DNA of 32,000 nt from Candidatus Hermodarchaeota archaeon (GTDB lineage: Archaea; Asgardarchaeota; Heimdallarchaeia; Hodarchaeales; Hodarchaeaceae): assembly GCA_048886185.1 (NCBI GenBank), contig JBHLKY010000010.1, positions 138,526 to 170,525 on the forward strand. The letters are read 5' to 3'. A program made the translations under genes and the position numbers. The notes under the pieces were generated by a model. That model saw nothing but the letters and a program-made list of their open reading frames with translations. It was not told the DNA's origin and searched no databases. This document shows positions 7,280 through 20,368 of the stretch, one piece after another (within the stretch, counting starts at the first letter, position 1; every line of letters begins with the position of its first letter).

Positions 7280-8178
7280 TTATGACCTAATTTTGCATCT
7301 ATGAGATTCCAGTTCTTTTATCCAGTTCTTAATGTCTTTAGGTAACGATACAAACTGATTCTTGCTTATCCACAAACTTTGAAGGTTCTTTAGTTGAGTA
7401 ATTTTTTGGGTAGTATTTTCAACTGATTATTCTCTAATCTTAAATTTTTCAGGTTAGTCAAATTTCCAATACTATCGGGAAGAGATTCCAAGTGATTCGT
7501 GTGTAAACTCAATATTTCAAGGTTAGTTAAGTTTCCCAAACTTTCTGGAACTGAAGTTAACAAATTTTTATGTATTATTAAGTTTTTAAGCTTAGATAAG
7601 TTACCAATGCTTTCAGGTATTGATCTTAACTGATTTATGGAGGCTATTAGGTCTTGGAGGTTTATAAGGTTCCCGATACTTTCAGGAAGTGCCCTTAATT
7701 GAATATTTAACAGGCCCAGTCTTTTTAAACACTTAAGATCCCCAATACTTTCCGGTAATGTTTTTAATTTATTACGAGATAGATCCAACCTTGTAAGATG
7801 AATCAATCTTCCTATAGTATATGGTAAAGATTCTATGTGGTTGTTAAATACATCTAAATCCTGAAGACTTGTTAGATTTCCAATGATTTTAGGGAGGTTC
7901 TTGAATTGATTATCACGTAAATATAATTTCTGAAGAGATTGAAGATTACTTATACTCTGAGGGAGACTAGTCATTTCGTGTTTATGTAAGCTCAATCCAA
8001 TAACTTTTTGCTCCTCATGAATGAATCCTGTACTATACAAACCGCACTTCCCACTAGGAATTCTCATCCTAATTATTTCTTCTAGCTCATGAAGAACAGC
8101 TGCATCATCCCTCTTCAGATGGGTTCCATGATAACTAGACATTTGGATTTGTTTTTCCCTCATTTTCAGAATTCTCAT
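7280..8178 (-). pseudogene. Leucine-rich repeat protein (23-aa LPxSIGNLxxLxxLxLxxNxLxx repeats), frameshifted near the 3' end
   Basis: Eight full 23-aa repeats in 7390..8178. Adding one A to the A6 run near 7402-7407 gives LPKKITQLKNLQSLWISKNQFVS (a perfect ninth repeat) and then LPKDIKNWIKELESHRCKIRS*, ending at 7280. Could be a homopolymer error. Confidence 0.8.
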
Positions 8179-8372
8179 TGAAAAAAAAGAAAAGAAGATA
8201 ATTTAGGTTATTTACTTTTTGAAGTATTCCATTCTTCTAGAATCTTCTTTGCTTTAACTAGGTAATTTCGGAGATGTAAATACTTTAGAGACTTTTCAAT
8301 AGGAGTTCCAGGATATTCATAGGTGTGATTATTCCTAGAACTGGTGTGATAGTCACGATCTGTAATAATATT

Positions 8373-9257
8373 TCACACTTCCTTAATTGGGCAATGAAGA
8401 TCGAGAATTAAATCTTCAGGAGGTGCTTTAGGATTGATAATCTTTTCTAACCACTGATGTGATCCAAAATCATATCTATTTGATTTTTTTACCCATTCCG
8501 CGAGTTTCTTCCAGGCAGGAATAATATTAGACTCATCAATAATAATTCGTGTCGTAGTCACAGCGTATAGACCTCCTTTGAAATTTCTTTCTTTGATTTC
8601 CCCTTCTGGTTGAATTTCTGCGGGGATTTTAATCCAAAATTCATAACCATACTCCTCTTTATCAGGGGAGGGATCAGGATTGTTGAAACCAAAGACGGGG
8701 TATTCCTGAATATTATCAAGGAGTCTATATTTAGCGGCCCATGCTTGCATCTTCGTCCAAGCGTCTTGTTCAGGACTTTTACTGATAACTTGAACCCTAG
8801 CTACTCGCATTGGTTCAAGAGTTAATATCCGAACATCTAAATCCATTCCAATTTTTGGTTCTTCATTCATGACTTCATCTCCATGAGTTGTGTATTTTCC
8901 AATCAGACGACGTATTCTTTCCAACCTTTCTTGTTCCCGTAGCTTGATTTCTAGGAAGCTCTGGGCGAGATGTTGAAATATGGCTTCTCCATCATCAGTA
9001 GCTCTGTATGATCCACGATTAATCTTCTCTACCAAGTTTTCATTACTCAAAATGTTAAGGTGATTTCCCAGGGCACTCTTCTGGAGACCAGTTTGTTCCA
9101 TCAATTCCTTGAAGGTCCTTGGAACATCAATCATTAATGTGAGAATTCGTAATCGTTGTGGATGATCAATTGTCTTCACTAGAGTAATAATTTCATTAAG
9201 GGATTCCAAGACGAATTGTTCCATATTACCACGCGAATCGAAATGTGGATTGGTCAT
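8373..9257 (-). CDS. ArsR-like winged-helix plus GyrI-like effector-binding transcriptional regulator
   Basis: HPQRLRILTLM...LGNHLNILSNENLVEK...YRATDDG wHTH; C-terminal FGFNNPDP...YGYEFWI...GGLYAV GyrI-like domain; AGGAG RBS. Confidence 0.85.
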   Translation of the reverse strand: MTNPHFDSRGNMEQFVLESLNEIITLVKTIDHPQRLRILTLMIDVPRTFKELMEQTGLQKSALGNHLNILSNENLVEKINRGSYRATDDGEAIFQHLAQSFLEIKLREQERLERIRRLIGKYTTHGDEVMNEEPKIGMDLDVRILTLEPMRVARVQVISKSPEQDAWTKMQAWAAKYRLLDNIQEYPVFGFNNPDPSPDKEEYGYEFWIKIPAEIQPEGEIKERNFKGGLYAVTTTRIIIDESNIIPAWKKLAEWVKKSNRYDFGSHQWLEKIINPKAPPEDLILDLHCPIKEV

Positions 9258-15405: not shown

Positions 15406-15822
15406 TCAGGCTTCTCTCCAATCCCATTTACCTGTTTTTAACCACCGACAGTAAGCCCAAATCCATGTTTGAATCATAATTGCGGCATCATAAGCTGTAT
15501 ATGAAAAATGCCAGTCCTTTTGAGGTCGGAGGTAACATATTTCTGTATGGCCATATTTGTCTGTTCTATGAATGTGGTGTGTTTTTGCTGCTAACCTTGG
15601 TTGGGTAATCCATGCCCGAGGTGGGGCTGTTGGATAAGTGTGAGGAAATTCGATTAAAACCGAAAACACTCCACATTTATAATGTCCAGTAGTAACATAT
15701 TTAACTTGGACACAGATATTTCCATTTTCCAATCTGTAAAAATCTTCTCTACTTAAAGAGGGGAAGACTCCTTGTAATTCATGAAGCTCCTGTTCAACAG
15801 TTCTGGTACGCATCTGTCTCAC
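15406..15822 (-). CDS. Prokaryotic E2/UBC-fold protein, paralogue B (catalytic Cys present)
   Basis: IEFPHTYPTAPPRAWI, HHIH...EICYL and W...TW..AY..W.KTGKW; likely ATG start at 15813. Confidence 0.82.
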   Translation of the reverse strand: MRQMRTRTVEQELHELQGVFPSLSREDFYRLENGNICVQVKYVTTGHYKCGVFSVLIEFPHTYPTAPPRAWITQPRLAAKTHHIHRTDKYGHTEICYLRPQKDWHFSYTAYDAAIMIQTWIWAYCRWLKTGKWDWREA

Positions 15823-16260
15823 TTATCTTAATAAATGATCCCAGAAACCTGCTTCTGGAAAGTCCCAATTGCCCGTTTTAGTCCATTGACAATATGCAGT
15901 AAGCCATGTTTCAATAAGTTTAGCTGCTTCATACGATGTAAACCGTGGGTACCAGTCTTTCTTAGGACGCAAATAACAGATTAGTGCATGACCTTCTTCA
16001 TCCCATTCATAGACATGAGGTACATTTTGAGGAATTTTAGGGTTTTGGATCCATGCTTTTGGAGCGCGGAAAGGATAATTGTAGGGGTATTCAATCAAGA
16101 TATCAAACAATCCACAAGCATATTTTCCCGTCGTAATAAAGCTAACTTGAACACAATAATTTCCATTCTTAAGCTTGTGAAAATCCTTTTGTTTTAAATC
16201 AGGAAAAAGTTTTCGAAGGGGTTCTATTTCACGCTCTGGGATAGTCTGTTTCAATAACAT
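15823..16260 (-). CDS. Prokaryotic E2/UBC-fold protein, paralogue A (catalytic Cys present)
   Basis: IEYPYNYPFRAPKAWI, PHVY...LICYL and TWLTAYCQWTKTGNW. Confidence 0.82.
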   Translation of the reverse strand: MLLKQTIPEREIEPLRKLFPDLKQKDFHKLKNGNYCVQVSFITTGKYACGLFDILIEYPYNYPFRAPKAWIQNPKIPQNVPHVYEWDEEGHALICYLRPKKDWYPRFTSYEAAKLIETWLTAYCQWTKTGNWDFPEAGFWDHLLR

Positions 16261-16280
16261 TTTGAGACCCTGTATTTATT

Positions 16281-17549
16281 TTACTTTTTAGATTCTTTTT
16301 CCTGATTTTGTTTATTTATCATCTGAGTACCATGAAAAGGACAATTCTTATCTTTTCCTAAGTCTTCATAGTAATAGAGTTCAAGCCCCTCAAATTTTAC
16401 TGACGAATTATCTTTTGTCATTATCGTTCGGTTAAACCACATATAGAAATTATGCGGAAACTGATATAGACCGTGTTTTATCTCTGTGAGAAGAACATCT
16501 AGACAAAATTTAGCAAGTAATACAGTTAAATTATCTATATCTAATCCTAATCCAGGTTGAGCTAGTTCTTCTTGTAATGTGCGATCGTAGCTTATTTGTT
16601 GTTCTAGTTCAACCATTGTTGGGATCGCTTGACTTTCTATACTTCCATTCATTCCTGGTTCAGAGTAAATACAATGGTAACAATAATCATCTTGTATAGG
16701 ATCAACTCTAAACATTAATCCTCCCTTAATCCCATCGAATGTTCCTGCATAGAGTACTGGAATCTTTAGTTGATTTGAATGGATAAAATCATTAATTTCA
16801 TAATTTACATCATGTTCCCCCGATACCGCAGCTATTAAATCAACCTCGTGGAGAATGTTGAAATAAAAGTCAAAATCAGCTTTGGTATGTAGATTGAATT
16901 TCTTCTCTACTGTTTTTATTCTCATATCAGGTATTCTTGCTTCAATATAATCTTGAACTGCCTTGGTTTTAAAGCGACCAAGATCAGCTAGATCACAGAT
17001 GTGCCTGATGATATTATGAGTTTCTAGTCGATCATTATCGATGAATATTAACTCCTTCACTCCTGATTTAGCGAGGTATAATGCTAATAAAGCCCCACCA
17101 GACCCCAAACCTATGATAGCAACCTTTTTTCCGTTCAATACCTTGATTGGAGTTTCTTTCTGATCAATTCGTACGAAAAGTCGACTAAGGTTCAAGTATT
17201 CAATCTCTACTTGTATATTTGAGTCTATAATGTCTATGTTATGAAAGATATCGGCCCTAAGGATTGATAAATCCTCTTTTACATAGACATGAAGATATGG
17301 ATATTCAATCGCCTTTGCTGTAATTATGGATTTTTCTACAGGTGTGTTAGAAATAGTTAAAAACCCTATTGGATATTCATTCTTTGATAAATTGAATCCT
17401 GTAAAATGGCATACAGTGAAATCATCATGAATCCTCCCATAAAGTAAATATGTTCTTTGATGAGATTTTAGATTATAAAATTGCCTTTCAAAAGAAGGAT
17501 AAATTATAATTTTCATGTATTTCACTTTAATCCTGACATCACTTTCCAT
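16281..17549 (-). CDS. E1/ThiF-family adenylyltransferase with an uncharacterised N-terminal domain
   Basis: VAIIGLGSGG, IDNDRLETHNIIRH, GRFKTKAV, CYHC and CPFH. About 125-aa N-terminal extension. Likely start is ATG 17516 (MKIIIY), 5 nt after the upstream stop. Confidence 0.92.
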   Translation of the reverse strand: MESDVRIKVKYMKIIIYPSFERQFYNLKSHQRTYLLYGRIHDDFTVCHFTGFNLSKNEYPIGFLTISNTPVEKSIITAKAIEYPYLHVYVKEDLSILRADIFHNIDIIDSNIQVEIEYLNLSRLFVRIDQKETPIKVLNGKKVAIIGLGSGGALLALYLAKSGVKELIFIDNDRLETHNIIRHICDLADLGRFKTKAVQDYIEARIPDMRIKTVEKKFNLHTKADFDFYFNILHEVDLIAAVSGEHDVNYEINDFIHSNQLKIPVLYAGTFDGIKGGLMFRVDPIQDDYCYHCIYSEPGMNGSIESQAIPTMVELEQQISYDRTLQEELAQPGLGLDIDNLTVLLAKFCLDVLLTEIKHGLYQFPHNFYMWFNRTIMTKDNSSVKFEGLELYYYEDLGKDKNCPFHGTQMINKQNQEKESKK

Positions 17550-18490
17550 AAAGGTTTCTTCATTATTTCGGGAACAGTTTCTTCTAAATTATCTTTGAGA
17601 AGTAGAAGAAACGGTTGAATTAGCTCCTCTTCATATAAAACATTAGCAGGGTGTTTTTCAATGGTAAACTTTCTAGATAGATCTTGTGAGGAGATATCGA
17701 TATAAATTTGACCATCTGGAAAGTTTGGTGGGAAGGAAATTAAAATTAGAAGATCTAGAATTCTGTTACTCCCCTGAGTTTCAATATCAACCCGAAACGG
17801 GAATGATAATATCTTTTCATCAAAGCTAGAGCCAATAAATTGATGAATATCCTTGATAGTAAATTGTGAATTAAAAACCTGTGTTAGTTCATGTTTTATC
17901 ATAGAGATTTGGCCTTCTGTGATCCCTGTCTCCTTTTTTGGTAAATCATCATCACCTGAAAAGAAGGAAATATTACTTTTTGGGATTCTATAAGTCCGAA
18001 AAATACTTTGTTCTTCCTCTTCAAGAGTTTTATTTCTTTGATATACTTCAACTATTAATTCATGATCTTCATCTGAGAAAGCATCGAAAATTATAGATAA
18101 AACAAGGTTTTTGTGAGGATTGAGTTTAAAGAATTCCTCTATTTGTTTATGATCCCCATAACTTGGCCCCCCATATCCGAGATGCTTATGCCAATTTCCA
18201 AGATAGAGCAATTTCTCATTATCTAGCATAAATCTTGCGTATTCTGGATTTATTTCAAAGTAAGAACTATTTCTCACACAATATTCATCTGATGGGATTT
18301 GTGTTTTCTCAATTTTAATTTCTAATCTTGATTCTACTTTCGTGATCGTTCCAAACATCATGCCCCCTGTTTCCTTCCTAGCCCATTTGGTACACTCTTC
18401 AAGCATCTCATCAATCATTCGATTAGATAAAGAGATAAATATGGATTCAGCTTGATTCTGAAACAAAGATGAAGTCTCCTTCCGATTCAT
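17522..18490 (-). CDS. JAB/MPN+ metalloprotease fused to a Cys-less UBC/RWD-like domain
   Basis: ETGG...LGNWHKHLGYGGPSYGD (E, HxH, S, D intact); C-terminal LLILISFPPNFP resembles the UBC/RWD FPxxYP turn. Confidence 0.88.
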   Translation of the reverse strand: MNRKETSSLFQNQAESIFISLSNRMIDEMLEECTKWARKETGGMMFGTITKVESRLEIKIEKTQIPSDEYCVRNSSYFEINPEYARFMLDNEKLLYLGNWHKHLGYGGPSYGDHKQIEEFFKLNPHKNLVLSIIFDAFSDEDHELIVEVYQRNKTLEEEEQSIFRTYRIPKSNISFFSGDDDLPKKETGITEGQISMIKHELTQVFNSQFTIKDIHQFIGSSFDEKILSFPFRVDIETQGSNRILDLLILISFPPNFPDGQIYIDISSQDLSRKFTIEKHPANVLYEEELIQPFLLLLKDNLEETVPEIMKKPLWKVMSGLK

Positions 18491-18524
18491 TGTTAAAAGA
18501 GAAAATAAAGAAGAAAATAAAATA

Positions 18525-18626
18525 TTAATAGTGTTTAGCTATTGGAACAGTATCTTTGTTTTCTTCGGCATCTTCTGTCGCTTTTTCTTTAGATTCAGTG
18601 TCAACTCTCTTAACTGGCCTTGGCAT
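18525..18626 (-). CDS. 33-aa peptide MPRPVKRVDTESKEKATEDAEENKDTVPIAKHY, first gene of the JAB-E1-E2-E2 operon (not in the ORF track)
   Basis: Hand translation, ATG 18626 to TAA 18525. AGGAG lies 11 nt upstream and the stop is 34 nt from the JAB start on the same strand. Confidence 0.7.
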   Translation of the reverse strand: MPRPVKRVDTESKEKATEDAEENKDTVPIAKHY

Positions 18627-18795
18627 TTTAATTTAAACTCCTAAAAACTACAATTGAAGGGAAAAGACAACCATTTATTAATCTTTAGTTATGAGAACAA
18701 GGAATTTAGATATTAAAAGATAACTGAATCAAAAGTTAGAAATGTATTATAAAATTAATAGAAATCAGGAGACTAATAACAAATCGTAATATAGA

Positions 18796-18951
18796 TTATT
18801 TTTTCCGTCGAAACGTATATCTTAACTCTTTCTTAAGCTCATTTTGTCTTCTTAATAGCTTGTGACGGGCTTTAATCCCTGTTACAGTCTGTAATTGCCT
18901 ATCAATTTTTATTAGTTCTTTCTGATAGAATTTATGTTTATCATTTGTCAT
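18796..18951 (-). CDS. 51-aa basic helical protein MTNDKHKFYQKELIKIDRQLQTVTGIKARHKLLRRQNELKKELRYTFRRKK (not in the ORF track)
   Basis: Hand translation; AGGA upstream of the ATG; helix-turn-helix hairpin-like composition. Confidence 0.55.
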   Translation of the reverse strand: MTNDKHKFYQKELIKIDRQLQTVTGIKARHKLLRRQNELKKELRYTFRRKK

Positions 18952-19690: not shown

Positions 19691-20005
19691 ACTGATTCCG
19701 CAAGAAGGGAATTATGACTGCCTTACATATTCAAGAAAAGTCATTTGTAATATACTCAAAAGAGTTTCCACAAAAATGTTTTTGAAATCCACATAGATGA
19801 AAATGATGGATCCTCAAGATAATAAAAGGAGAAAAAAAGAAGAATAAAATGCTTAGAAACAAGATTGGGAAAACCAAGATCAATGGGATGATGAGGACAA
19901 TAGGGAACATCATGAAAAGTGGGAGGAAGTTGATTAAATCCTTGTTTACCCTCTATTTTCAATCACTTCTTTTTTTATTTACCAGCCAGCTAAGCGTTGA
20001 TTTTA

Positions 20006-20368
20006 ATGTTGGTGAAAAATTTGGTTAGTTTTTGTGAGATATGTGGATCAATATTAATTCCAAAACCAAAAAAGAAAGATATGAAAAAAGAAATTGTCTC
20101 TCTATTTTGCAATTCTTGTAAAAAAGGGATTCAAAGAGGTTCCAATGAAATCTCATATCTAGTAAAAACTAAGATTCCCCATAGAGCAAGTGAACGATTA
20201 ACTGTTATTGAATCAACATTCGATGTTCTTCCTACCATTCGGAATCCATGTCCCCGATGTGATAATCATGAAGCTTACTATTGGGAAGGTGGAGATCGTC
20301 GAAAGCCAGAATGGGAGTCGATGACTTATTACAAGTGTAAGAAGTGTTCATGGATTTGGTTTGAATAG
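20006..20368 (+). CDS. TFS/RpoM (RPB9-like) double zinc-ribbon paralogue lacking the acidic cleavage hairpin
   Basis: FCEICGSIL...CNSC and CPRCDNHEAYYW...TYYKCKKCSWIW. The hairpin reads EGGDRRKPEWES instead of the canonical QTRSADEP. Confidence 0.85.
   Translation: MLVKNLVSFCEICGSILIPKPKKKDMKKEIVSLFCNSCKKGIQRGSNEISYLVKTKIPHRASERLTVIESTFDVLPTIRNPCPRCDNHEAYYWEGGDRRKPEWESMTYYKCKKCSWIWFE

Follow-up and report, generated by a model that had tools for sequence, protein, structure and literature searches.

A candidate peptide-conjugation operon with Cap2/Cap3-class enzymes in a Hodarchaeales archaeon

Gene order and regulatory sequences

The window analysed here is a 32,000 nt stretch of DNA from Candidatus Hermodarchaeota archaeon (Hodarchaeales; contig JBHLKY010000010.1). 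Five co-oriented open reading frames, encoding a short peptide, a JAB peptidase, an E1 and two E2 proteins, were found on its minus strand at the coordinates given by the original prediction (Table 1). The intergenic gaps of that prediction hold if E1 is started at its second methionine at 17516, which lies 5 nt past the JAB stop and is the start point in most orthologues. For JAB, the true start may be an in-frame TTG at 18466, which follows a GGAG and is where the Atlas record begins.

Table 1. Features of the operon, in order of transcription
Feature	Position	Strand	Remarks
Promoter-like box TAAAGATTAATAAAT, archaeal TATA-like	18673..18687	-	Precedes the peptide start by about 45-60 nt
Ribosome-binding site AGGAG	18638..18642	-	11 nt ahead of the peptide ATG
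33-aa peptide gene, candidate modifier	18525..18626	-	MPRP...VPIAKHY + stop
T-rich spacer, peptide-JAB	18491..18524	-	T-runs past the peptide stop at all loci
JAB/JAMM metallopeptidase	17522..18490	-	With conserved C-terminal alpha/beta domain
E1-like adenylating enzyme	16281..17549	-	Cap2-linker/Atg7-NTD-like N-terminal domain + ThiF
E2a, UBC-fold conjugating enzyme	15823..16260	-	Catalytic-type Cys in ...ALICYL...
E2b, paralogous E2	15406..15822	-	Same Cys in ...TEICYL...

The box TAAAGATTAATAAAT is near-identical across 11 Hodarchaeales loci while the sequence around it diverges, and we infer a promoter role for it. The ribosome-binding site reads AGGAG or TGGAG at the same spot in every aligned locus. 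We speculate that the T-rich spacer could possibly be a partial terminator, which would leave the peptide in excess over the enzymes.

Enzymes, peptide and occurrence of the module

The JAB/JAMM peptidase region covers approximately residues 10-180 and is followed by a C-terminal domain at about 185-322. The protease was predicted to be intact, and this was confirmed: all 54 sequences have the JAMM residues E40, H101, H103, S110 and D113, the PADLOC JAB models match at 9.8e-12, and the top structural match of the model (pLDDT 87) is Cap3 (9ILD; Z 15.2, rmsd 2.3, 135 residues). The suggestion that the C-terminal domain is UBC-like was not confirmed, as hhalign gave a probability of only 31% against the E2 profile and the structural matches were weak (Z 6-7); the fold of this alpha/beta domain is uncertain.

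The E1 was likewise confirmed as a ThiF/E1 gene, with a ThiF match of 3.1e-25 and invariant nucleotide-binding and catalytic motifs. It has a single ThiF domain (residues 136-309), an N-terminal domain (about 11-118) resembling the Cap2 linker and the Atg7 NTD, and no separate Cys domain. The PADLOC E1-E2 (Cap2) models match it at 1.1e-28, and the search of the E1 profile against PDB ranked the molecule types as Cap2 (3.7e-17), MccB (1.5e-13), ThiF and PaaA, with no match to Atg7 at E <= 0.001. In structure, residues 7-396 of the model align with Cap2 residues 165-600 in VIA (Z 22.3), and both Foldseek and VIA match E1 to the Atg7-type architecture of NTD plus adenylation domain. None of the 59 E1 sequences has a crossover-loop Cys, and Tyr321 in this loop is invariant in all 59; the loop is modelled at low confidence, and Tyr321 may be the counterpart of Y370 of Bub. 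A Cys-less E1 could also stop at adenylation, as enzymes of the ThiF/MccB type do.

E2b is about 50% identical to E2a, and every Hodarchaeales locus retains both paralogues, while lineages carry 1, 2 or 4-5 of them. Both proteins stand as predicted, as E2-fold proteins with an ICYL cysteine; Cys95 and His82 do not vary among 21 sequences, and the PADLOC E2 models match E2a at 1.3e-08 and E2b at 4e-08. Orthologues of E2a carry the Pfam domain PF26395 (E2-CBASS), E2b has a UQ_con match of 1.3e-4, and the E2 profile matches canonical E2s with UBE2W as the best. Overall the four enzymes all have intact catalytic signatures, and their nearest relatives are Cap2, Cap3 and CBASS-type E2.

The peptide ends in Lys-His-Tyr and is probably disordered and free-standing; its gene is present in one copy in this genome. 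The gene is coding, with 9, 5 and 30 variable sites at the three codon positions. The dN of the peptide is 0-0.096, against 0.23-0.45 for JAB, 0.16-0.35 for E1, 0.13-0.30 for E2a and 0.10-0.21 for E2b, with dS saturated. By this estimate purifying selection on the peptide is much stronger than on the enzymes of the operon. All versions start with MPR and contain [VI]-x-P-x-x-[KDE]-H-[YF], either terminal or with a short tail after it, and M1, P2, R3, K13, A16, D19, P28 and H32 do not vary even between lineages with E1s of only 36% mutual identity. Conservation ends past KH[YF]; both the length and the sequence of the tail vary (none, S, RN, RQ, M, FNDS, YDS, YNGT or YLLNDL). By analogy, this is the pattern of a ubiquitin-like (Ubl) precursor trimmed by a DUB.

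The conserved peptide tail was absent from the ends of all other ORFs in the genome. Searched with a profile of the peptide, 1.84 billion proteins yielded only five clusters, all stand-alone small ORFs, and JAB-E1-E2 adjoins the peptide in the two clusters whose loci were inspected and in loci with three other variants. Since the peptide gene is under the size limit of most gene-callers, standard annotation misses the system.

The module was found in 26 species-representative genomes and several metagenomic lineages, and this recurrence argues that the arrangement is not due to chance. The peptide lies immediately upstream of the JAB gene in 10/10 Hodarchaeales loci with flank, and upstream of it in 24 of the 25 species-representative loci that extend upstream at all (the one without it has only 123 nt there). 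The same order is seen in four more metagenomic loci, which cover three distinct lineages and include a form where JAB and E1 are fused; one related locus (L063) has no recognisable MPR...HY peptide upstream. Peptide-bearing loci occur in Hodarchaeota/Heimdall, Nitrososphaeraceae and three metagenomic lineages; an Asgard archaeon and soil ammonia-oxidising archaea carry the same type of operon. Within the genus, the module was present in only 12 of 20 genomes, several of the others being incomplete.

Only peptide-JAB-E1-E2(-E2) is conserved as a unit. The flanks differ among genomes and hold ordinary, non-syntenic genes, which in Hodarchaeales are metabolic or housekeeping. A few distant loci have defence-like neighbours (TIR-NACHT; a bacterial HORMA and AAA; an integrase). 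As predicted, no Ubl, CD-NTase or RING was found among the ten neighbouring ORFs, nor any defence gene; a beta-grasp Ubl was found neither in nor beside the operon, and SMODS gave no match at E <= 0.01 in this 96%-complete genome. The homologous operons carry the peptide and have no Ubl or CD-NTase. Neither the conserved unit nor the surroundings of the operon hold a gene for a cyclic-nucleotide-activated effector, and the module has no exporter, transporter or immunity gene. The viral contigs searched gave no match.

Proposed pathway and alternative readings

We think it probable, with some reserve, that the operon encodes a self-contained conjugation pathway of the Cap2/Cap3 (Atg7-like) class, whose modifier would be a linear peptide and neither a beta-grasp protein nor the tail of an enzyme. 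The original proposal that the peptide replaces ubiquitin is favoured, nearly as far as comparative evidence allows, by its recurrence, the purifying selection and the variable tail, while conjugation itself is read from the sequences.

In this pathway the peptide would be synthesised from a conserved promoter of its own, and where its gene adds residues past KH[YF], JAB would trim these and expose a reactive C-terminus. The E1, presumably a homodimer like ThiF, MoeB and Cap2, would bind the extended tail and, judging from its intact adenylation motifs, adenylate the C-terminal carboxylate. The solved relatives Cap2, MccB and PaaA all accept extended peptide tails and not beta-grasp domains, and such a tail is the substrate in the Cap2 mechanism (bioRxiv 10.1101/2022.03.31.486616). 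As E1 has no crossover-loop Cys, the acyl group would be passed to Tyr321 as an oxyester, for which Bub E1s give a precedent (bioRxiv 10.1101/2024.11.21.623953), or be captured directly by the E2 cysteine. The N-terminal domain of E1 would dock the E2, and E2a or E2b would hold the peptide as a thioester on the invariant Cys and hand it to target amino groups without an E3. The number of E2 paralogues might determine the number of target classes, and JAB could also reverse the conjugation. The bulky aromatic C-terminus of the peptide differs from the Gly/Ala ends of characterised E1 substrates bound for E2.

As for the role, the ubiquitin-like conservation, the ordinary flanks and the clade-wide presence point more to a regulatory or degradation tag of the cell than to a defence system that evolves fast. 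A housekeeping role is not secure, since distant loci have defence-like neighbours. Antiviral defence by analogy with CBASS and Bil was raised as a possibility in the original prediction. Viral or host proteins would then be tagged upon infection, as a defence system like type II CBASS or Bil, and we hold this role to be rather unlikely. The characterised relatives (Cap2/Cap3 and Bil) are all defence systems, the best matches by sequence are to PADLOC models, and some distant loci lie near TIR-NACHT, HORMA and AAA, or integrase genes, but cyclase, effector and other defence genes are absent from the conserved unit, and the conservation of peptide and E2 is unusually high for defence genes. The patchy presence within the genus and the differing flanks also fit defence, but several genomes without a match are incomplete, and the Hodarchaeales neighbours are metabolic or housekeeping. 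In this clade, with ordinary non-syntenic flanks and blank viral contigs, the antiviral role is without support.

The peptide might also be a regulator, pseudosubstrate or assembly cofactor, the true substrate being the C-terminus of another protein or a Ubl from another locus. Seven ThiS-family genes and ubiquitin-family genes do exist elsewhere in the genome, a C-terminal Tyr is atypical among E1 substrates, and binding and adenylation of the peptide are deduced from sequence. We nevertheless judge this improbable. The two strongest ubiquitin-family matches lie on other contigs and each adjoins its own E1-like gene (such as the separate ubiquitin gene on contig C14), so these genuine ubiquitin-like genes have an E1 at hand and speak against charging by the operon's E1; the five operon products and their neighbours gave no match to the ubiquitin/ThiS family. 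Further, no other ORF ends in the conserved tail, the unconserved flanks offer no other candidate that accompanies the enzymes, and a precursor-like variable tail is expected of a substrate that uses its C-terminus.

Alternatively, the activated peptide could be joined to a non-protein acceptor, a lipid head group or a small molecule, in the way Atg7/Atg3 link Atg8 to phosphatidylethanolamine. The NTD-plus-adenylation architecture is common to E1, Atg7 and Cap2, one E1 with two E2 paralogues is reminiscent of Atg7 and its partners Atg3 and Atg10, and what Cap2-type systems modify is likewise not known. We find this distinctly improbable, as the matches of the E1 profile are to Cap2, MccB and ThiF, with none to Atg7 at E <= 0.001, the E2 profile is best matched by canonical E2s such as UBE2W, and the operon gives no hint of a membrane.

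A RiPP-like natural product, with the peptide activated for chemistry and not for conjugation as in microcin C/MccB or pantocin/PaaA, would agree with a short ribosomal substrate, a Cys-less E1 and the place of MccB and PaaA among its nearest solved relatives, but it is highly improbable, as it has no role for a JAB isopeptidase and two E2s with invariant Cys, the exporter or immunity gene is missing, the peptide is near-invariant over its full length, as RiPP cores are not, and it ends in Tyr where MccB chemistry requires the C-terminal Asn of MccA.

To our knowledge, the cargo of every known E1-E2 cascade is a beta-grasp protein (such as ubiquitin, SUMO, Atg8, SAMP, BilA and BubA) or a large enzyme's tail, the latter in CBASS. 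If the conjugation pathway is real, the beta-grasp fold would be dispensable for E1-E2 chemistry, and the peptide would join ubiquitin-likes and Pup as a third type of small protein tag, in a very small, genetically encodable tagging system. Tentatively, and with somewhat more doubt than confidence, we suggest it as the first linear non-beta-grasp 'ubiquitin', with a Cys-free E1 and an aromatic C-terminus, serving as a cellular and not a defence tag in Hodarchaeales and soil ammonia-oxidising archaea. Hodarchaeales are the closest archaeal relatives of eukaryotes, and Atg7/Cap2-like enzymes among them would bear on the origin of autophagy-type non-canonical conjugation.

Comparison with known systems

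We found no paper describing this operon, and PADLOC gave part-matches only. The original statement that the arrangement matches none of the known systems nevertheless goes too far, as the enzymes are plainly of the Cap2/Cap3 class.

The Caldiarchaeum/Asgard Ub-E1-E2-RING-Rpn11 operon has a ubiquitin gene and a RING E3 that are missing here. MccB/MccA and PaaA/PaaP are similar in that E1-superfamily enzymes bind and activate a short ribosomal peptide, but these are antibiotic makers without E2 or JAB partners and with other N-terminal peptide-clamp domains; microcin C is a heptapeptide ending in Asn and has exporter and immunity genes, against 33 residues and a Tyr end here. Pup of actinobacteria is, like our peptide, a small, acidic, probably disordered and well-conserved tag beside its own enzymes. 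The two sequences are however unrelated, Pup ending in GGQ/GGE and the peptide in KHY, and the glutamine-synthetase-like PafA ligates Pup via the side chain of the C-terminal Glu without E1, E2 or JAB.

Bil (BilABCD) has the beta-grasp Ubl BilA, missing here, and differs in its E1, ours having a single ThiF domain and no Cys domain. Bub (6E/DUF6527; BubAB-BubCD-BubE) has points of likeness: its E1 lacks the catalytic Cys and has a conserved crossover-loop Tyr (Y370, the possible counterpart of Tyr321), its JAB trims a precursor as proposed here, and the JAB-E1 fusion of one related metagenomic form resembles BubCD. In contrast, the Bub E2 has Ser for the Cys that is invariant here, and Bub has a beta-grasp Ubl and the serine protease BubE, whereas no DUF6527/BubE match was found in the operon products or neighbours. 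Atg7 with Atg3/Atg10 shares the NTD and adenylation-domain architecture and the use of one E1 with two E2 paralogues, and the operon occurs in the archaea most closely related to eukaryotes; on the other hand there is no significant sequence-profile match, Atg7 has a catalytic Cys, and the modifiers in the Atg system have a beta-grasp fold and a C-terminal Gly.

In type II CBASS, the E2-E1 fusion Cap2 and the JAB protein Cap3 act on the C-terminus of the CD-NTase. The operon has neither CD-NTase (SMODS) nor effector, its E1 lacks the crossover-loop C548 of Cap2, and its E2 is unfused and duplicated whereas Cap2 is E2-linker-E1 in one protein. The candidate substrate is a free 33-aa peptide ending in Tyr and not an enzyme tail ending in Gly/Ala, JAB has an extra C-terminal domain, and the hosts are archaeal. 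The likeness is nevertheless extensive: the adenylation and linker/NTD domains of E1 are closest to Cap2 in both sequence and structure, JAB is nearest to Cap3, the E2s match CBASS E2 models and PF26395, and both systems have no E3 and use, as proposed here, an extended non-beta-grasp C-terminal tail. Since the enzymes are of the Cap2/Cap3 class, the operon represents CBASS-type machinery without cyclase and effector, and with the E2 as a separate protein.

The operon and its peptide gene

The minus-strand ORF listing agrees with the five co-oriented genes of the original prediction, and the intergenic gaps are also as predicted, provided that the E1 gene starts at its second Met (17516), the start used by most orthologues. 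For the JAB gene an in-frame TTG at 18466, with GGAG before it, is an alternative that may be the actual start. A conserved box, TAAAGATTAATAAAT, is found about 45-60 nt 5' of the peptide start and AGGAG 11 nt 5' of it, and in all loci T-runs lie 3' of the peptide stop codon. We read the box as a putative promoter of the peptide gene itself, and the T-runs as a possible partial terminator that would give an excess of peptide over enzymes.

Genes of the operon, with their positions in the window
Feature	Length (aa)	Coordinates	Strand	Basis
Peptide ORF	33	18525-18626	-	ORF listing
JAB protein	322	17522-18490	-	ORF listing; CBASS-type JAB models
E1	422	16281-17549	-	ORF listing; ThiF and Cap2 models
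E2a	145	15823-16260	-	ORF listing; CBASS E2 models
E2b	138	15406-15822	-	ORF listing; CBASS E2 models

Two further features lie upstream of the operon. A strongly basic, helix-prone ORF of 51 aa (18796-18951, minus strand) is located 170 nt from the peptide gene. It matches no family, and other genomes gave no sign of it next to the operon. At 1.4 kb there is a TFIIS/TFS-type zinc-ribbon paralogue (19997-20368, plus strand; Pfam Zn_ribbon_TFIIS, 1.6e-4), which we rejected as a member of the system since it is non-syntenic in every related locus. As it is absent from the operon surroundings in all of these, it is probably unrelated to the operon.

The family searches gave no match for the peptide. 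Looking upstream of the homologous enzymes for a conserved short ORF, a check proposed along with the original prediction, we found a near-identical 33-aa ORF directly 5' of the JAB gene in 10/10 Hodarchaeales loci with enough flank; among 25 species-representative loci, 24 have the peptide, and for the remaining one only 123 nt of upstream sequence is available. Variable sites of the gene at codon positions 1, 2 and 3 number 9, 5 and 30, and the Nei-Gojobori dN relative to the window, a comparison in which dS is saturated, is 0-0.096 for the peptide versus 0.23-0.45 for JAB, 0.16-0.35 for E1, 0.13-0.30 for E2a and 0.10-0.21 for E2b. The codon-position pattern and the dN values together led us to reject the idea that the ORF is fortuitous or belongs to an RNA element. 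Identity between the related locus L006 and the window is 94% for the peptide, 53% for E1 and 46% for JAB. Even in distant lineages, where E1 is about 36% identical, a peptide homologue is still recognisable, with M1, P2, R3, K13, A16, D19, P28 and H32 invariant and Tyr or Phe as the final residue. Searching 1.84 billion representative proteins with the peptide profile gave only 5 clusters, all of them stand-alone small ORFs with no fusion to a larger protein. JAB-E1-E2 adjoin the two clusters whose surroundings were examined anew, as well as the loci with three other variants. The window's genome has one copy, and no other ORF in that genome has the peptide's C-terminal tail.

In most Hodarchaeales peptide genes the stop follows immediately after KHY, and in some the extra residues S, RN or M come first; the lineage with a JAB-E1 fusion has RQ after KHY. 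In 14 Nitrososphaeraceae loci the peptide is constant through ...TIPNIKHF and continues with tails of 3-6 residues, which differ in both length and sequence (YTLQ, FNDS, YDS, YNGT, YSDT, YLLNDP and others). A constant body with a variable, dispensable-looking tail is a classic mark of peptidase-trimmed ubiquitin-like precursors, and the C-terminus of the peptide appears precursor-like in its sequence. In Bil and Bub, JAB trims the Ubl precursor and thereby exposes the reactive end (Bub: bioRxiv 10.1101/2024.11.21.623953).

The conjugation enzymes

The family searches support the predicted ThiF/E1 adenylation enzyme with matches to ThiF (3.1e-25) and to the E1 part of Cap2 'E1-E2' models (1.1e-28), and the E1 family retains the GxGSGG loop, the D...N..R motif, the phosphate Lys and the Zn-site Cys pair. 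The E1 model (pLDDT 77) is confident in the N-terminal domain (11-118) and disordered in the crossover loop (298-334). It aligns with residues 165-600 of the Cap2 structure (Z 22.3, 343 residues), a stretch comprising the linker and the E1 domains without the Cap2 E2 domain. Full-length Atg7 also aligns by structure; the sequence profile ranks Cap2 (3.7e-17), MccB (1.5e-13), ThiF and PaaA in this order, and gives no match to Atg7 at E <= 0.001. Cap2, MccB and PaaA have extended peptide tails as substrates, not beta-grasp domains (Cap2: bioRxiv 10.1101/2022.03.31.486616). In Cap2 and Atg7 the E2 is positioned by the linker/NTD (bioRxiv 10.1101/2022.03.31.486616), and an Atlas feature search with the E1 N-domain gave weak leads (0.77-0.79), the Cap2 linker among them.

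A crossover-loop Cys occurs in 0/59 members of the E1 family; Tyr321 is found in all 59 sequences and Arg323 in nearly all. Since Bub E1s carry an oxyester on the crossover-loop Tyr (bioRxiv 10.1101/2024.11.21.623953) and Cap2 remains functional in vitro when it lacks the E1 Cys, by way of the E2 Cys (bioRxiv 10.1101/2022.03.31.486616), both a route through Tyr321 and one directly to E2 are possible for this E1. Prediction of the complex of E1, ATP, Mg and peptide gave scores of 0.38, 0.01 and 0.24, which we count neither in favour of binding nor against it.

For E2a and E2b the CBASS E2 models match at 1e-8 to 4e-8 and UQ_con matches weakly, and the Pfam family PF26395 (E2-CBASS) is precomputed on operon orthologues. 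Together with the invariance of Cys95, this agrees with the claim of two E2-fold proteins that each carry an ICYL Cys; His82 is likewise invariant. All Hodarchaeales loci retain both paralogues, a single E2 is present in Nitrososphaeraceae, and an acidic metagenomic lineage has four with the Cys and one without. Searched against solved structures, the E2 profile matched canonical E2s best, UBE2W first (7e-5), with the Cys aligned. UBE2W shares a PHVY...GHIC arrangement with the E2s (E2 alignment A4, window 15406-16260), and the HPN asparagine is missing. As UBE2W acts on N-terminal amines of disordered substrates, the likeness may serve, by analogy, as a lead to the target chemistry of the E2s.

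The JAB protein matches CBASS-type JAB models (9.8e-12), Cap3 is the top structural match of its JAB domain, and all JAMM residues are invariant, in line with the intact protease claimed. The conserved and confidently modelled C-terminal domain (~185-322) had been described as UBC-like. An hhalign comparison with the E2 profile gave a probability of 31% (E 5e-4, 64 columns), the VIA matches were unrelated alpha/beta folds at Z of only 6-7, and the Atlas structure neighbours were DUF families at TM ~0.5. We therefore treat the fold as uncertain and dropped the UBC/RWD-like label.

Distribution and related loci

Named homologues come from Hodarchaeota, Hodarchaeales and Heimdallarchaeota, all Asgard archaea. 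In a phylum sample of 301 genomes, where several of those without an E1 match are incomplete, E1 was detected at E <= 1e-30 in 12/20 genomes of the window's genus (its own genome excluded) and in 0/280 from other genera. Scanning 185,579 species-representative genomes for the JAB signature gave 26 loci, 11 from Hodarchaeota/Heimdall and 15 from Nitrososphaeraceae, with none from bacteria. A tblastn search of plasmids with the E1 of the L019 type found no match, and the JAB and E2 profiles found no relatives on viral contigs. As the flanking genes vary between genomes, we take the five-gene module to be the conserved unit.

In the metagenomic loci L019 and L020 the proteins are acidic and the E2 paralogues number four to five; four Cys-bearing ones are scattered on both strands around a peptide-JAB-E1 core, and a fifth E2-like domain, which lacks the Cys, continues into a long acidic tail. 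An integrase lies near the L020 operon and a DDE transposase near that of L019. The lineage of L062 (JGI 3300022697) has a single E2, and a TIR-NACHT-pentapeptide-repeat protein (7809-9173) is encoded 2.5 kb downstream of the operon. In L064 (JGI 3300012469, 132-2162) JAB and E1 are fused into one protein of 676 aa, like BubCD, and here too a small ORF lies upstream, with the C-terminus ...IPVTKHY plus RQ. L063 (JGI 3300022777) has a JAB-E1-E2 set with no recognisable MPR...HY peptide upstream; a 68-aa ORF is found 260 nt before its JAB gene, and in its vicinity are an AAA ATPase and a bacterial-HORMA gene, a pairing also seen among type III CBASS regulators.

Proposed role and relation to known systems

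The analysis shows only that the parts exist and are conserved; the chemical steps are all our inference. The peptide is proposed as the modifier. JAB would remove any extension from it, and E1 would adenylate the carboxylate of KH[YF]. With E2a or E2b docked on the N-domain of E1, the Cys of that E2 would then receive the acyl group, either through Tyr321 or directly; the E2s would move the peptide to targets with no E3, and JAB would undo the modification.

The peptide and the E2s are extremely conserved, and the flanks are ordinary and non-syntenic, which argues for an operon encoding a cellular tag and speaks against an antiviral role. The latter seems unlikely to us, even if the relation of the enzymes to defence enzymes, the patchy presence of the module and, at a few distant loci, neighbours that look defence-like lend it some weight.

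The claimed lack of ubiquitin, RING and CD-NTase in and around the operon held in our searches: no CD-NTase was found in the window's genome, and none of the operon neighbours is an effector, a Ubl, a RING protein or a defence gene. Ubiquitin-family genes of this genome are found on other contigs, adjoining their own E1-like genes. Two ubiquitin-type loci lie apart from the operon (G000 C14:39331-39929 and C8:12178-12705; L002/L022 and L004/L025). A canonical ubiquitin-family gene (PF00240, 4e-14) is directly beside an E1-like gene in one such locus, and a second, weaker ubiquitin-like match adjoins another E1-like gene. Eukaryote-like systems such as these pairs are to be expected in an Asgard archaeon, and they are distinct from the operon.

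Because of these absences, and of the ubiquitin genes being elsewhere with their own E1s, the operon fails the defining tests of type II CBASS, Bil, Bub, the eukaryote-like archaeal ubiquitin operon, Pup and microcin C. No account of a peptide-JAB-E1-E2 operon turned up in the literature covered, in which subscription journals are poorly represented. The assertion that the arrangement matches none of the established systems named with it is too strong as regards the enzymes, which are common to the operon and type II CBASS. We class the operon as a Cap2/Cap3-type conjugation system with a free-standing linear peptide as its putative cargo.
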